The position numbers and the translations under genes were made by a program. A DNA stretch of 64,000 nucleotides, from positions 4,803 to 68,802 of the forward strand of contig VBOG01000028.1 of assembly GCA_005877815.1 (NCBI GenBank), written 5' to 3'. The notes under the pieces were generated by a model. It searched no databases, was not told the origin of the DNA, and was given only the letters and a program-made list of their open reading frames with translations. The DNA comes from Nitrospirota bacterium. Its GTDB lineage: Bacteria; Nitrospirota; Nitrospiria; Nitrospirales; NS-4. Positions 26,546-63,616 of the stretch are shown one piece after another (within the stretch, counting starts at the first letter, position 1; every line of letters starts with the position of its first letter).

Positions 26546-26580
26546 CCTTACGCGAGGCATGCCGTCGAGTCACCGAGGGT

Positions 26581-26725
26581 ACCCGTTGCTCTTTGCGCGG
26601 GTCCTGTCGGCGCATCACCCGAACGTGCTCAGGCCCTTTCGCCTTCGAGGCCCCGCAGATCAGGCTGTAGTGCCCTCCGCTCCGCTCGGGTCCCATGCGG
26701 CGCCACCCGCACGATTGCAACGGGT
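26581..26725 (+). repeat. 145-nt long-hairpin repeat, copy 1 (full core)
   Basis: Aligns without gaps to the reverse complement of 61758-61902, with 24 mismatches in 145 nt by my hand count. Terminal inverted repeats are ACCCGTTGC and GCAACGGGT. Confidence 0.85.
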
Positions 26726-26744
26726 CGTGTCGTTACGCTATCGC

Positions 26745-26824
26745 GGCCGTCGAAGATCCGGCTCCACGACCCTGCGCTCCGCCCGGGTCCCACTCGACGT
26801 CACCCGCGCCATTTCAACATCTGC
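26745..26824 (+). repeat. degenerate partial direct copy of the right half of the hairpin repeat
   Basis: GCCGTCGAAG...CGCTCCGCCCGGGTCCCA...CACCCGCGCCATTTCAAC parallels 26642-26725. Confidence 0.55.
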
Positions 26825-26859
26825 TGAGAGTCTGCGGCGCGCACAATGTCCAATCATTT

Positions 26860-27010
26860 GGGAACGGGTGGCGCGTAGCTGGGCTCATTGCACCCAACCA
26901 CCCCTCGCCGGCCAAGACTGGCTTTTGTCCCGTGGCCATCGCCCGCCGCCGCATTCGCGAAGCGGCCTGGGATAGCACGGCGGGATGCTGAGCTGACAGG
27001 ACCCGTTCCC
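26860..27010 (+). repeat. 151-bp segment sharing both termini with the 61677-61931 element
   Basis: The left end GGGAACGGGTGGCGCGTAGC is identical over 20 nt to 61677-61696. The right end GCTGAGCTGACAGGACCCGTTCCC is nearly identical to 61909-61931. The ends are inverted repeats (GGGAACGGGT / ACCCGTTCCC). The interior is unrelated. Confidence 0.7.
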
Positions 27011-29168: not shown

Positions 29169-29816
29169 TCATTTATTGCGCACGTAATAGAGTTCCAAGG
29201 CGTCGCGGTAGCCCGCGACGCGCCCCTCTTCCCAGGCGTGCTCCAGCCGGCGCTTGAGACGTTCCACATCATGGTCACGCTTAGAATCGGCGGCATTCTG
29301 TCTGAGCAGGTTGAAGAGCGCAACGTGGATGATCTTGCTTCGACGAACTTCCATGTCTTCGCTGATCCAGGAGGCAAATGCGTCAGGGGCATGGTCCATC
29401 ACGATCTGGGGCTTCCAGGCGTCATACCCGAGTTTTTCCTTGATGATCTTTCGGACCGTCTCAATCTCTTCTCGTAGTTTCTTGATATCGTTCAGCAAGT
29501 ACCCGCGAATGTCGTCGTGCCCGGCCTCATAGAGCTTCTCGAGCATCTGGGCGACATAGATCTCCGGGTTGACAGGCTTCTCCTTGAACCCATACGTACC
29601 GTGTGACCCGAACCGCAGCCGGTCATATTCTTCCTTCGCCCCCGCATCGCCGACGACTCCATACGCTTCGCTGGCTTCCTTGAAACGGGCCTCCGCCTTC
29701 TTGTCCCCCGGGTGATGATCCGGGTGATTCTCCTTGGCGAGCTTCCGGAAGGCGGCCTTGATTGCCGCCGCCGTTGCGTCCTTCTCGACCTCGAGAACCT
29801 TGTAATAATCCTTCAT
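29169..29816 (-). CDS. J-domain (DnaJ-like) protein with unknown C-terminal domain
   Basis: [10 protein letters not shown]...[17 protein letters not shown] contains the HPD motif. It has no Gly/Phe or zinc-finger region. The track start 29987 lies inside the repeat and is rejected. Confidence 0.8.
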
Positions 29817-29854
29817 GGCGAGGGCGACTATAACATATCTCGATCGGAACGAGA

Positions 29855-29968
29855 GCGGGTGGCGCCGCATGGGACCGGGCGGAGCGGAAGAGCCTACAGC
29901 CGAGTGGACGGGGCTGCGACGGCGATTCGACCCGTCGCACGTCCGGGTCATGCGCCGACAGGACCCGC
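29855..29968 (-). repeat. hairpin repeat, copy 3 (truncated core, about 114 nt)
   Basis: GCGGGTGGCGCCGCATGGGACC...GACAGGACCCGC matches 61774-61887 on the same strand and the reverse complement of copy 1. It lacks the outermost ACCCGTTGC arms. Confidence 0.75.
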
Positions 29969-29975
29969 TCTGGCA

Positions 29976-30005
29976 TTGCGAAATCAACTCCTAAGCTTGT
30001 ACGAT
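29976..30005 (+). promoter_or_regulatory. sigma-70-type promoter candidate (TTGCGA-18-TACGAT) placed for a leaderless transcript
   Basis: The -10 element ends 6 nt before ATG 30012, and there is no SD in between. Confidence 0.3.
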
Positions 30006-30011
30006 GACCTC

Positions 30012-46319: not shown

Positions 46320-46395
46320 TGGTGGAGGGTAGGGGATTTGAACCCCCGACCCCGACGTTGCGAACGTCGTGCTCTCCCAGCTGAGCTAACCCCCC
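46320..46395 (-). tRNA. tRNA-Ala (anticodon CGC), CCA encoded
   Basis: Cloverleaf folded by hand: acceptor GGGGGGT/ACCCTCC with G3:U70, D-arm GCTC/GAGC, anticodon stem CGACG/CGTCG with loop TTCGCAA, and T-arm GGGGG-TTCAAAT-CCCCT. Confidence 0.9.
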
Positions 46396-60601: not shown

Positions 60602-61660
60602 TTATTTGACTTTGAGCTCGGTCCAGGCCCGATCGTAGGCTTTAATGGTCTCGCCCACATCCTTGATCCACTCCAGCCTGGCGACGGTGTCCTGAGACGG
60701 ATAGATGGCGGGGTTCTGGGCAATCTCTTTCGGCAGCAACACACGCGCCGCCTCATTGGCACTGGCATATTTCACTTTGGTCGTGATCTGGGCCGCCATC
60801 TGCGGCTCGAGGAGAAAGTTCACGAATGCCATGGCTTCATGCTTGTGAGCCGAGGTCTTCAGGATGCAGAGATTATCCTGCCAGATGGTGCCGCCCTCCT
60901 GGGGAATCACATATTTGATGGACGGTTTCTCGGCCGCCGCGCGCACGATCGTCCCGCTCCACCCATGCGCGAGCGCCACCTCGCCAGAGATCAGGAGCTG
61001 ATCGTAATTCTCGCTGGTATACGCTTTGACTAGCGGTTTTTGCGCCATCAGACGCACCTTGGCCGCCTCAAGCTTCACCAGATCCACGGTATTCAGCGAC
61101 TCGCCCGCCGAGCGAAGCGCCATGCTAAAGACTTCGCGCTCGTCATTCAGGAGACTAATCTTGCCCTTGTACCGTTCGTCCCAGAGCGCCTGCCAGCTTT
61201 GCGGCGGTGACGACACCATCTCTGCATTGTACCCGATGCCCGTCGTGCCCCAGAGATACGGAATCGAATAGGTATTCTGCGGATCGTAGTAGAGGCCTTT
61301 GAGATGCGCGTACACCTGCGCAAGGTTCGGGACCTTCGACCGATCCAGTTCGGCCAGCAACCCCTGCTTGATCATGATGGAGACCATGTAATCGGACGGC
61401 ACGACCACGTCGTAGCCTGAAGCGCCTCCCTGCAGCTTCGCGAGCAATTCCTCATTCGACCCGAACGTATCCGTCATGACATGGATGCCGAACCGCCGCT
61501 CGAACTCCTTGACGACTGTCTCCTCCGTATAGTCCGACCACGTAAACAGATGAAGCGTGACCTTCTTGGCATTGCCGTTATCCGACGATGGCGAACAGGC
61601 GGCAAGAATTAGCAGGAATGCAAAGGCGATGACGAGAACTGGCGAGCAGAGGAGGACCTT
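60602..61660 (-). CDS. potD: spermidine/putrescine ABC transporter substrate-binding lipoprotein (PotD/PotF-like), start codon unresolved
   Basis: PotD-like throughout. The lipoprotein signal ...KVLLCSPVLVIAFAFLLILAAC is present, but no in-frame ATG, GTG or TTG lies immediately upstream of or within it. The upper boundary is nominal. Confidence 0.75.
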   Translation of the reverse strand, partial: KVLLCSPVLVIAFAFLLILAACSPSSDNGNAKKVTLHLFTWSDYTEETVVKEFERRFGIHVMTDTFGSNEELLAKLQGGASGYDVVVPSDYMVSIMIKQGLLAELDRSKVPNLAQVYAHLKGLYYDPQNTYSIPYLWGTTGIGYNAEMVSSPPQSWQALWDERYKGKISLLNDEREVFSMALRSAGESLNTVDLVKLEAAKVRLMAQKPLVKAYTSENYDQLLISGEVALAHGWSGTIVRAAAEKPSIKYVIPQEGGTIWQDNLCILKTSAHKHEAMAFVNFLLEPQMAAQITTKVKYASANEAARVLLPKEIAQNPAIYPSQDTVARLEWIKDVGETIKAYDRAWTELKVK

Positions 61661-61676
61661 TTCTTGCGGGTGAGTC

Positions 61677-61931
61677 GGGAACGGGTGGCGCGTAGCGGGC
61701 GCCCTGAGCCCGGCGTGAGTAAGTCCGCGCGAGGCTTTGCGACGAACGACCGGATTGACCCGTTGCAGTCGCGCGGGTGGTGCCGCATGGGACCCAGGCG
61801 GAGCGGAGTAGCGTACAGCCGAGTCTGCGGGGCTTCGACGGCGAAACGCCGCGAGCACGTCTGGGTGATGCGGCGACACGACCCGCGCAAAGAGCAATGG
61901 GTTCCCCGGCTGAGCGACAGGACCCGTTCCC
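61677..61931 (-). repeat. hairpin repeat, copy 2 (145-nt core 61758-61902 nested in a 255-bp unit with GGGAACGGGT/ACCCGTTCCC termini)
   Basis: The core is about 83% identical to the reverse complement of 26581-26725. The outer termini are shared with 26860-27010. It occupies the potC-potD spacer. Confidence 0.85.
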
Positions 61932-61971
61932 GTGTGCGCCGACAGGCCCTGCTCCTTGATTGCAGCTTGAT

Positions 61972-62736
61972 TCATTTCCTCTGCACCCACGTCGCCACCG
62001 CCACCAGCCCCATCGAGATCACCACCAGCACCGCCGATAACGCATTCACCTCCGGCGTCACCGCCGTCTTCAGCATGCCATACACCTTGATCGGCAAAGT
62101 GGTCGAACCGACCCCGGCCAGAAAGAAGCTGATGATGAAGTCGTCCAGCGACAGCGTGAACGCCATGAGCAGCGCGCCGATGATGCCGGGCATGAGCAGC
62201 GGCAGCGTGACCCGTCGGAATGCGGTCCACGGCGTCGCGCCCAGGTCCAACGCGGCCTCTTCAAGCTGCGGGTCCAGCTTTCGCAGGCGCGCACGCACGA
62301 TCAGCGCCACGACCGGAAAGTTAAACATCGTGTGGGCAATGATGATCGTCACCAGCGAAAGCTTGACGCCGATCATGACGAAGAACAGCAGCATCGCCAC
62401 GCCCATCATGATCTCGGGGATAATGATCGGCAGCAGCAGCACGCCTTCACATGCATGAAGACCAGGGAATGCCTGGCGCTCCAAGGCCACGGCCGTCAGC
62501 ACGCCGAGCATGCCGGCGAGAATCGTCGACACCACGGCGACGATGAGGCTGTTCCAGGTTGACGATAACAACGCCTCATGGGTGAACAGCTTCGCATACC
62601 ACTGGAGCGAGAACCCCTGCCAGCGCGCGGAAAACTTTGACGCGTTGAATGAGAACACGATGAGGATCGCGATCGGGAGGTACAGGAACAGCAGGTCCGT
62701 GATGCTTGCCGCGACGATCCAATGACGGGTTTTCAT
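61972..62736 (-). CDS. potC: spermidine/putrescine ABC transporter permease PotC
   Basis: Six-TM permease with an EAA-loop-like LEEAALDLGATPWTAFRRVTLP. ATG 62736 is preferred (10 nt after the potB stop). Confidence 0.85.
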   Translation of the reverse strand: MKTRHWIVAASITDLLFLYLPIAILIVFSFNASKFSARWQGFSLQWYAKLFTHEALLSSTWNSLIVAVVSTILAGMLGVLTAVALERQAFPGLHACEGVLLLPIIIPEIMMGVAMLLFFVMIGVKLSLVTIIIAHTMFNFPVVALIVRARLRKLDPQLEEAALDLGATPWTAFRRVTLPLLMPGIIGALLMAFTLSLDDFIISFFLAGVGSTTLPIKVYGMLKTAVTPEVNALSAVLVVISMGLVAVATWVQRK

Positions 62737-62746
62737 GGTGTCTGGT

Positions 62747-63616
62747 TTACGCGAGATTTTTGGGGCCGCCTGCACGCAGATATGACATCACGGCCAGCAG
62801 CACGCCGACCATCAGGATGAAGGAGAGCGCCGACCCGAAGGGCCAGTCGCGGACCACCAGGTACTGATGTTGGATCAGATTCCCGATCATGAGCGTTCTC
62901 GCCCCCCCCAGGAGATCCGGAGTGACATACGCCCCGAGCGATGGAATGAAGACCAGGAGACAGCCCGCGATGATGCCCGGCTTGCTCAAAGGCAGAATGA
63001 TGCGCGTGAAAATTCTGACCGGGCTCGCGTAGAGATCCCACGCCGCCTCGATCAATGCAGGGTCGAGACGCTCGAGGGCCGCATACAGCGGCAAGACCAT
63101 GAACGGCAGATAGCCATAGACCAGCCCGAGCAGGACCGCACCGTCGGTGTAGAGCAGGTTCAGCGGTTGGTCAATGAGACCGGCGGAGATCAGCGCCGTA
63201 TTCAGCAACCCTTCGGTCCGCAGAATGAACATCCAGGCGTAGGTCCGCACCAGAAAGTTCGTCCAGAAGGGGATGATGACCAGCAGCAGCAGCGCGCCCT
63301 GCCAGCGTTTCGGGGCGCCCGCAATCGCATAGGCGAGCGGAAACCCGATCACAAGACAGATGGCGGAGCTGGCGACGGCGATCCAGAGCGACCGCCAGAA
63401 AATGCGCAGGTAGAGCGGATCGAGGATGCTCGTATAGTTCGAGACGGTCAGCGTCCATTCAATGCCGCCGTAGGTGCCGCGGGACGCGAAGCTGACGGCG
63501 AGGACCACGAGGAGCGGCATCAGGAAGAAGACCAGAAGGGCAGCGGCGGGCGGGACGATCAGCCAGGGAACGGTCAGTCGGCCTCGCGCGTTGAGAACGG
63601 AGTCAGCGGTCTTCAC
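62747..63616 (-). CDS. potB: spermidine/putrescine ABC transporter permease PotB
   Basis: Permease with EAA loop IEAAWDLYASPVRIFTRIILP. It overlaps potA by 4 nt. Confidence 0.85.
   Translation of the reverse strand: MKTADSVLNARGRLTVPWLIVPPAAALLVFFLMPLLVVLAVSFASRGTYGGIEWTLTVSNYTSILDPLYLRIFWRSLWIAVASSAICLVIGFPLAYAIAGAPKRWQGALLLLVIIPFWTNFLVRTYAWMFILRTEGLLNTALISAGLIDQPLNLLYTDGAVLLGLVYGYLPFMVLPLYAALERLDPALIEAAWDLYASPVRIFTRIILPLSKPGIIAGCLLVFIPSLGAYVTPDLLGGARTLMIGNLIQHQYLVVRDWPFGSALSFILMVGVLLAVMSYLRAGGPKNLA

Follow-up and report, generated by a model that had tools for sequence, protein, structure and literature searches.

A REPIN-like palindromic repeat inside the potD reading frame of Nitrospirales, probably translated as part of a cleaved lipoprotein leader

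Introduction

In Escherichia coli, repetitive extragenic palindromic (REP) sequences and bacterial interspersed mosaic elements (BIMEs), such as those between malE and malF, occupy untranslated gaps, where they serve the upstream message as barriers against 3' exonucleases. REP doublets that form hairpins (REPINs) are mobilised by REP-associated tyrosine transposases (RAYTs) (Bertels & Rainey 2011, PMC3116915), while the palindromic elements of Rickettsia (RPEs) are found as in-frame insertions in protein-coding genes (review, PMC10969869). Here we describe a palindromic repeat at the junction of potC and potD in the potABCD operon of a Nitrospirota bacterium (order Nitrospirales), within a 64,000-nt stretch of contig VBOG01000028.1 (positions 4,803 to 68,802; assembly GCA_005877815.1) that we refer to as the window. 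Its position between two transporter cistrons recalls the malE-malF case. We consider it likely, however, that the repeat is an old insertion, similar to a REPIN or to a miniature inverted-repeat transposable element (MITE), at codon 2 of potD, where it would be translated as an N-terminal extension of the PotD lipoprotein and removed at the lipobox.

Results and discussion

The repeat lies within the potD reading frame

The + strand between 61677 and 61931 holds a 255-nt unit that starts with GGGAACGGGT and ends with ACCCGTTCCC, bounded by perfect 10-nt terminal inverted repeats. These are exactly the ends given in an initial annotation of the window, and the flanking genes also agree with its placement of the unit in the pot operon, after the potC stop and ahead of the PotD signal peptide (Table 1). 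The 255-nt unit (85 codons) is the middle layer of a three-level nest that occupies 61666-61952: it is itself a degenerate outer unit, its internal hairpin loop holds an inner unit, and it is enclosed by the remnants of an outermost one. On the mRNA the order is an ATG plus seven codons, then 61952..61932, then 61931..61677 (with the inner unit at 61886..61773), then 61676..61666, and finally the signal peptide. An independent assembly (L034; L numbers are our handles for loci) shows the same arrangement. The orthologous single unit occupies the equivalent place in L026 and L056, and the CACCCGC/AAGAAAA junction at the signal-peptide end is common to the window, L026, L027 and L038. The C-terminal 120 residues of PotC are 88-100% identical in close relatives. 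In relatives, as in the window, the pot genes stand in the order potA-potB-potC-potD, with a DUF1080-like gene, a HEAT-repeat gene, def and an ABC exporter after them.

The initial annotation had taken the repeat to fill the potC-potD spacer. Instead, it sits within the potD open reading frame (ORF), in frame with an ATG that overlaps the potC stop and has AGAGGA directly upstream of it. From this ATG the window frame runs uninterrupted for 126 codons ahead of the lipobox Cys, and the predicted leader includes AFRRRSPADSAVR. The signal-peptide region, 61595..61665, contains no in-frame ATG, GTG or TTG, and the nearest canonical start in the window lies 87 codons upstream of the Cys.

Empty and filled junctions in relatives

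Orthologous junctions were gathered through PotD homologues and a metagenome scan, which turned up 285 potC-potD junctions. The initial annotation had proposed a comparison with relatives lacking the element; such empty junctions exist (L029, L030, L066 and L054), but there potC and potD overlap as ATGA without a spacer, so that what the repeat occupies is not an untranslated gap. In these relatives the signal peptide follows directly from the overlapping ATG (for example, MSRILCAIVLLALLAAC), and 41-44 nt separate the potC stop from the lipobox Cys. Because they overlap in this way, we suggest that the junction originally had no spacer.

Filled junctions comprise the window and nine other distinct alleles, which carry one to three nested units (88-125 nt each) past the potC stop and ahead of the signal peptide's hydrophobic core, for inserts of about 100 to 330 nt (distances to the Cys in Table 1). 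The units at this site are always antisense to pot, with 25 of 25 model matches on the minus strand. L056, in which exactly 114 nt stand between the ATG and AAG-AAA (M-KKVFATAIVF...), looks like the primary insertion event. On a PotD tree, filled alleles occur throughout the clade, including its deepest branch (the window), while the empty alleles are nested beside the filled L052. From this distribution we conclude that presence of the repeat is ancestral in the clade and that the empty sites are secondary losses. More distant relatives, with PotC 60-70% identical, have no unit.

Across the filled alleles, every distance from potC stop to Cys is 2 mod 3, and in 10/10 distinct alleles the PotD frame crosses the repeat without a stop. 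Nine of the ten keep an ATG in frame with PotD at the potC stop (eight as ATGA, L052 as TAATG); L060 is without it and has a different palindrome ahead of its unit. Since the alleles read the unit in different frames (L026, AFRRRSPAGSPVGPSAPPGSHAAPPARKF; L041, QTCSLRLRPVATGATGSPASRCAPP; L056, ITLTCSCPSPSQPRRLGCRPFRSARVP), their indels compensate for each other, and one compensating indel is seen within the first signal-peptide codons (L026, AAGAAAATTCCTC, vs L027, AAGAAAATCCTC). In L026, L027, L038, L039, L041, L047 and L056, no canonical in-frame start other than the upstream ATG would leave more than 10 residues ahead of the Cys, and eight filled alleles have no usable canonical start downstream of the repeat. 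For L049, L060, P0017 and P0021, annotators placed the potD start at a GTG that lies inside the unit end (MAPYRRHPLALL...). As the unit's last codons there form a charged n-region, the repeat would add coding sequence to a functional leader in the L049/L060 sub-lineage.

The protein downstream of the repeat is well conserved. Mature PotD is full length among the filled alleles, with a nonsynonymous-to-synonymous ratio (dN/dS) of 0.07-0.24 and dS up to 1.7, and between element-bearing lineages dN/dS is about 0.1 at a dS of 0.4-1.7. The lipobox and the hydrophobic core are conserved as well. By these measures, strong purifying selection acts on mature PotD in the element-bearing lineages.

These results bear on a proposal of the initial annotation, that the repeat is a disruptive insertion. 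Under this proposal potD would have been cut from its start codon and would be a dying or unexported pseudogene in carrier lineages. The lack of a canonical start beside the signal peptide would fit, as would the frequent truncation of potD by gene callers in filled alleles (P0022, P0037, P0039) and the replacement of the junction in an allele from the same species as the window (L033). Yet purifying selection on a full-length mature protein with its export signals kept, together with an upstream-ATG frame that is intact in all nine alleles retaining the ATG and a PotD frame open in all ten, makes a pseudogene highly improbable. The insertion half of the proposal comes closest among the three options that had been offered; the disruptive half does not stand.

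L033 has PotC and PotD 100% identical to those of the window, so the junction is polymorphic within the species. Its sequence is identical to that of the window as far as the end of the composite. Beyond it, window positions 61609-61681 are replaced by 1154 nt, which hold an ORF plus hicB-hicA, and by a different signal peptide with a GTG start.

A proposed translated and discarded leader

We propose the following sequence of events. One unit would have entered potD long ago directly after its start codon, which overlaps the potC stop for translational coupling, and in the window lineage this unit would later have gained the 255-nt composite insert. The insert keeps the frame and has no stop on the mRNA strand, so that PotD would be translated from its original ATG (61975) straight through the repeat, giving a leader of 126 residues vs about 16. 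The Arg/Pro/Ala-rich extension would remain cytoplasmic, with a positively charged membrane-proximal part that fits the positive-inside rule, while the hydrophobic segment would insert into the membrane and Lgt and LspA would process the precursor at the conserved lipobox Cys. The whole leader would thus be removed, leaving the mature lipoprotein unchanged. With the leader cleaved and the mature protein unaffected, the insertion could persist under selection on frame and openness only. That repeat-bearing PotD is actually translated and exported in this way is what we infer from the sequence. If so, lipoprotein export tolerates leaders of 50-126 residues, as the filled alleles suggest.

How much weight the reading frame can bear depends on the null that is chosen. 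Taking eight alleles as independent, the frame test gives p ~0.02 under an empirical null of 61% and ~1e-4 under a null of 1/3; the latter is arguably the right one, because the units at the potD site (88-125 nt) and their flanks vary in length. Openness of the frame was rejected as evidence of selection, as GC-rich units are often stop-free in two frames. We regard the argument from frame as moderate, not overwhelming, and the combination of missing alternative start codons with strong conservation of PotD as the stronger one.

Several observations weigh against a translated insertion of a mobile element. The modal unit length of 114 nt is divisible by 3, as are the lengths of 22 of 36 intergenic copies (61%; 14/36 are not); one antisense frame is open in 36/36 of them; and the shared ancestry of the alleles weakens all frame statistics. 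Near-cognate initiation, for example at an ATC 11-16 codons before the Cys, is possible, and it is unusual for a lipoprotein signal peptide to come after a leader of 57-126 residues. The L033 cassette brings its own start codon and signal peptide, so the window allele could be suboptimal. As for mobility, no target-site duplication was found in the flanks of 38 copies, where a frequent GA...TC merely lengthens the stem, and no transposase or RAYT (an ORF with Y..NP/HxH) was found in ~560 kb of related sequence. Finally, window copies 2 and 3 are present in 16/16 contigs examined from the species, with no presence/absence polymorphism, so that nothing points to recent movement.

Is the hairpin a regulator?

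The initial annotation had supposed a stable hairpin, and folding bears this out on both strands. The 255 nt fold at -139.7 kcal/mol on the + strand (z -4.7) and at -124.7 kcal/mol on the - strand, the sense of pot (z -3.9), and in both cases 0/200 dinucleotide shuffles were as good; over 351 nt the pot-sense RNA has a predicted fold of -161.8 kcal/mol. An attenuator, RNase barrier or processing site in the potABCD transcript, setting the PotC:PotD ratio, would make use of such stability and would have the REP between malE and malF as its precedent. In the window, moreover, the predicted fold pairs GCAGAGGA (61984..61977, the AGAGGA region) with UCCUCUGC (61653..61646), which lies directly beyond the repeat. 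However, that pairing is not conserved in other alleles, and an 8-nt complement has a chance expectation of ~1%. The element lies within the potD ORF, where translating ribosomes would have to melt the hairpin, and no terminator-like or promoter-like site was found in 61300-62300. Nor does the family favour one orientation: its members also stand in promoter regions and between convergent genes. The hairpin at the potD site, furthermore, has decayed in many lineages (36-81 bits, vs 105-138 bits in well-kept intergenic copies), while the frame has been kept throughout. A regulatory hairpin of this kind is therefore unlikely, and the attenuator and RNA processing or stability roles that had been suggested for the repeat are not borne out. 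A kinetic effect of the hairpin on potD translation or mRNA decay is conceivable at most.

The two pairing segments make up a perfect inverted repeat of 8 nt, GCAGAGGA / TCCTCTGC (61977-61984 and 61646-61653), that brackets the whole stack and was seen in no allele but that of the window. In the predicted mRNA fold it joins the Shine-Dalgarno-like AGAGGA to a CCUCCU-like stretch in the signal-peptide codons.

A different kind of function would follow if the family were a 'translation-compatible' selfish element (114 nt is 38 codons, and one antisense frame is open in 36/36 copies) and its potD copy had been co-opted, with a long, structured, Arg-rich leader throttling or timing PotD synthesis and export relative to the permease. 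As another possibility, the family may move by an undescribed route that targets hairpin loops without target duplication. We think either distinctly unlikely. If co-option were true, the in-frame hairpin would be a functional regulator inside an ORF, not tolerated junk.

A palindromic repeat family of Nitrospirales

The copy at potD, which the initial annotation had recognised as a repeat copy, is one of many. Within the window, a repeat search pairs a 157-nt core at 61757-61913 with 26570-26726 (82%, inverted orientation) and finds a partial third match at 29937-29968. A covariance model (R1), built from 21 units, identifies four units at these three window sites, even with filters off, and 45 copies in 207 kb (the window plus genome loci); the inner unit at 61773-61886 belongs to the unit alignment (A2). 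Except at potD, all of the 45 matches are intergenic. The 24 loci found by an exact-pattern scan, which covered one genome per species, come from soil and groundwater metagenome-assembled genomes (MAGs), and all but one are labelled Nitrospirales, Nitrospirae or Nitrospiria. The sole exception, L012 (JACRDG010000013.1), is labelled a Desulfomonile tiedjei MAG; it has the repeat and a near-identical flanking gene end in common with the Nitrospiria locus L011, and the contig is probably mis-binned.

The basic unit of 114 nt reads GCGGGTGGCGCCGCATGGGACCC.GGCGGAGCGGA, about 45 variable nt, then GAGCACGTC.GGGTGATGCGGCGACAGGACCCGC. It forms one long imperfect hairpin with a variable middle and two nearly invariant ends of ~35 nt that are inverted copies of each other: the arm GCGGGT-GGCGCCGCATGGGACCC and the reverse complement of GGGTGATGCGGCGACAGGACCCGC correspond, and the terminal inverted repeats (GCGGGT...ACCCGC) extend to ~24 nt. 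RNAalifold returns a single hairpin of 31 consensus pairs, eight of which show compensatory double changes. Paired cells amount to 94.6%, vs 33-42% when partners are slid, and the covariation score of 0.159, vs 0.073 in shuffles, is reached by 0/500 shuffles.

A unit often sits in the loop of a small stem, ACCCGTTGCA...GCAACGGGT, that itself lies inside another unit. This nested loop context occurs in at least six loci, and both the 255-nt unit and window copy 2 are composites of this sort. The context gacccgttgcaRtcgN / unit / Kcaaagagcaacgggt is common to the potD-site unit, window copy 2, L004, L011, L017 and L019.

Copies show no strong bias with respect to neighbouring genes. All four gene-orientation classes are represented in an automatic tally and in hand-checked examples; the tally comes from a crude ORF caller that mislabels at least window copy 3, and we use it only for the lack of a strong bias. 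Window copy 2, by hand-check, separates bioB from a minus-strand gene whose 3' end faces that of bioB. Upstream of thiD, a unit stands in sense in L003 (2964-3077) and L009 (1684-1817) and in antisense in L004 (5615-5727), which suggests either independent insertions in three species or a preferred target region. The eno-gatB gap is occupied in two genomes (L001 and L010), and the L011/L012 site is likewise occupied in two.

Searches for relatives of the repeat outside this group gave little. Rfam had no match to it at gathering score, and in 61600-62000 the only hit at E<=10 was a 13-bit chance match to a snoRNA; no match was found in plasmid, phage and IMG/VR viral collections, and a literature search found no published description of the repeat as a Nitrospira REP or MITE. 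A protein search with the 43-residue translated unit peptide returned three tiny ORFs only, with E-values that are too harsh for a query of this length. Integron attC sites, group II intron domains and ribozymes were considered and dropped, their defining motifs or an Rfam match being absent.

Strong covariation of the stems, together with near-invariant unpaired nucleotides in the first 35 nt of the unit, could also mean that the units are not selfish DNA but structured noncoding RNA genes or motifs expressed from the family sense strand (+ here, antisense to pot), giving either a multi-copy small RNA or one that binds protein. The strands are indeed asymmetric: the + strand folds better, and in the sense orientation there are 38 G-U pairs vs 9 A-C mismatches. 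One inherited position (column pair 26/91), however, accounts for most of the G-U excess, and transposition through single-stranded DNA would yield an equal asymmetry. Against an RNA gene, too, are the lack of a promoter-like site in 61300-62300, the nesting of copies in each other's loops, their truncation, their random placement relative to genes and the presence of one copy inside an ORF. We judge this reading very unlikely.

Given the inverted conserved ends, variable middle, extragenic dispersal, nesting and persistence at orthologous sites, the family fits best as a Nitrospirales-specific, non-autonomous element of the REPIN/MITE type, whose units would be mobilised in trans by a transposase. 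Ten genes bracketed by units are all housekeeping genes by Pfam scan, and no transposase adjoins any unit in the loci examined. As neither a RAYT nor a target-site duplication nor within-species polymorphism was found, mobility of the repeat is inferred from its distribution only.

Comparison with described systems

The closest resemblance of the family is to REPINs. It has a unit of ~100 nt with two inverted, conserved arms of ~35 nt, a variable spacer and a hairpin; its many copies are almost all extragenic, occur in both orientations and form clusters and nests; and its sites are orthologous across species, fixed within a species and free of target-site duplication. It differs from REPINs in that no RAYT is flanked by units in the ~560 kb scanned, in a sequence unrelated to described REPs, in a unit at the long end of the size range, in prominent self-nesting in a specific hairpin loop and in having one copy in a coding region. 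The family thus appears to work like REPINs and REPs, although a RAYT would be needed to claim strict membership. Bacterial MITEs (Correia/NEMIS, ERIC, RUP and Nezha among others) are likewise small, noncoding, structured and dispersed elements with terminal inverted repeats and an occasional in-frame ORF fusion; the Nitrospirales repeat is set apart from them by its lack of a target-site duplication, and no parental insertion sequence with matching ends was identified.

The locus itself parallels the RPEs. Here too the ORF of a gene that stays functional holds an in-frame, stop-free palindromic repeat of 100-150 nt, and the insertion is inherited across species. The Nitrospirales repeat belongs to another phylum and has no sequence relationship to RPEs, though no RPE sequence library was compared. 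Unlike RPEs, it has a single coding insertion among ~40 sites; this insertion lies in a leader that would be cleaved off and need not suit a folded protein; and lineages read it in different frames, so that no peptide is conserved. With the REPs and BIMEs of E. coli it has in common that a dispersed palindromic repeat stands between two cistrons of an ABC-transporter operon, but ancestrally there is no potC-potD gap (ATGA overlap), and the repeat is read as translated, with codon 8 before it and the signal peptide after it. What is locally unusual is the consequence, a coding insertion in a leader, which is parallel to the RPEs and unlike the malE-malF REP.

The family would be a previously undescribed REPIN-like one in an environmentally important phylum, and its potD copy a natural example outside Rickettsia of a palindromic repeat that is long-lived (dS above 1) inside a coding sequence. 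Its survival there would be simply explained by its position in the discarded part of a lipoprotein precursor.

There is also a practical side. In this soil and groundwater clade of Nitrospirales, gene callers mis-start or truncate potD, with calls of 333-338 residues from inside the signal peptide and others of 385-398 residues with odd N-termini, and recognising the repeat mends these annotations and explains spurious small ORFs. The 457-residue ATG-to-stop PotD precursor of the window has no exact match on record, which indicates that gene callers picked another start.

Table 1. Features of the potC-potD junction and of the other repeat copies in the window, and lengths of the filled junctions in the distinct alleles
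Feature	Position in window	Strand	Remarks
potC-like permease gene	61972..62775	-	stop TGA 61974..61972; from ORF listing; orthologues with PF00528 BPD_transp_1
potD start ATG (61975..61973) and codons 2-8 (NQAAIKE)	61953..61975	-	ATGA overlap with potC stop; precedes repeat stack
Outermost unit, 3'-end remnant GTGTGCGCCGACAGGCCCTGC	61932..61952	+	family 3' end for comparison, GTGATGCGGCGACAGGACCCGC; read vs unit consensus
255-nt unit	61677..61931	+	terminal inverted repeats GGGAACGGGT / ACCCGTTCCC
5' stem half ACCCGTTGCA flanking nested inner unit	61758..61767	+	
Inner canonical 114-nt hairpin unit	61773..61886	+ (family orientation), antisense to pot mRNA	covariance model R1, 128.5 bits, E 2.6e-26
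3' stem half GCAATGGGT flanking inner unit	61894..61902	+	
Outermost unit, 5'-end remnant GCGGGTGAGTC	61666..61676	+	mRNA strand: ..CACCCGC then AAGAAAA
PotD signal-peptide region QEKVLLCSPVLVIAFAFLLILAAC	61595..61665	-	ends LILAAC; lipobox Cys codon 61597..61595
Mature PotD, spermidine/putrescine-binding lipoprotein	60602..61594, including stop	-	Pfam SBP_bac_1/8/11/6 and source names
Second composite copy	26570..26870	-	inner unit 26597-26710, degenerate outer unit 26720-26807
Third copy, single 114-nt unit	29855..29968	+	most of the 195-nt gap between divergent DnaJ-domain and thioredoxin-domain genes
L049			potC stop to lipobox Cys, 152 nt
L056			potC stop to lipobox Cys, 164 nt
L039, L047			potC stop to lipobox Cys, 167 nt
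L052			potC stop to lipobox Cys, 173 nt
L026			potC stop to lipobox Cys, 182 nt
L060			potC stop to lipobox Cys, 182 nt
L041 = L078			potC stop to lipobox Cys, 194 nt
L038			potC stop to lipobox Cys, 218 nt
L027			potC stop to lipobox Cys, 314 nt
Window = L034			potC stop to lipobox Cys, 374 nt

Other features of the window and of the junction

Mechanical ORF calling in the window runs through the units and yields spurious N-terminal extensions, with ORFs of 783 and 542 residues (29712-30011 and 60602-62230), and in one database assembly a 59-residue ORF is annotated on unit DNA (L121, 1023-1202). The sole Rfam match at gathering score in the window is a tRNA gene at 46323-46395 (minus strand, 63.4 bits).

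Many relatives carry a hicB-hicA toxin-antitoxin cassette upstream of potD, next to a repeat remnant that follows potC (L031, 2037-2481; L032, 490-934; L025, 1-350; L033, 1335-2488). In these cassette alleles, potD starts at a GTG or ATG beside the hicA stop and has an unrelated signal peptide. Cassettes other than hicBA also occupy the junction in relatives.

Two further palindromes occur at the same place, and neither has a copy in the window. A second palindromic family, CCCCTCTCCCC(T)GG(A/C)GGGAGAGG...GGGTGAGGGGGA, lies just past the potC stop in L042, L055, L060 and L094 and is intergenic in L007, L010, L014 and L020. A third palindrome, GTAGGGGCACGGCGCGCCGTGCCCCTAC, follows the potC stop in L043, L051, L062, L063, L086 and L090, as well as in L028 (215-245). 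The annotated N-termini of P0009, P0019, P0035 and P0043 contain its translation, ..VGARRAVPL.., and it looks like another repeat that is read through into the PotD leader.

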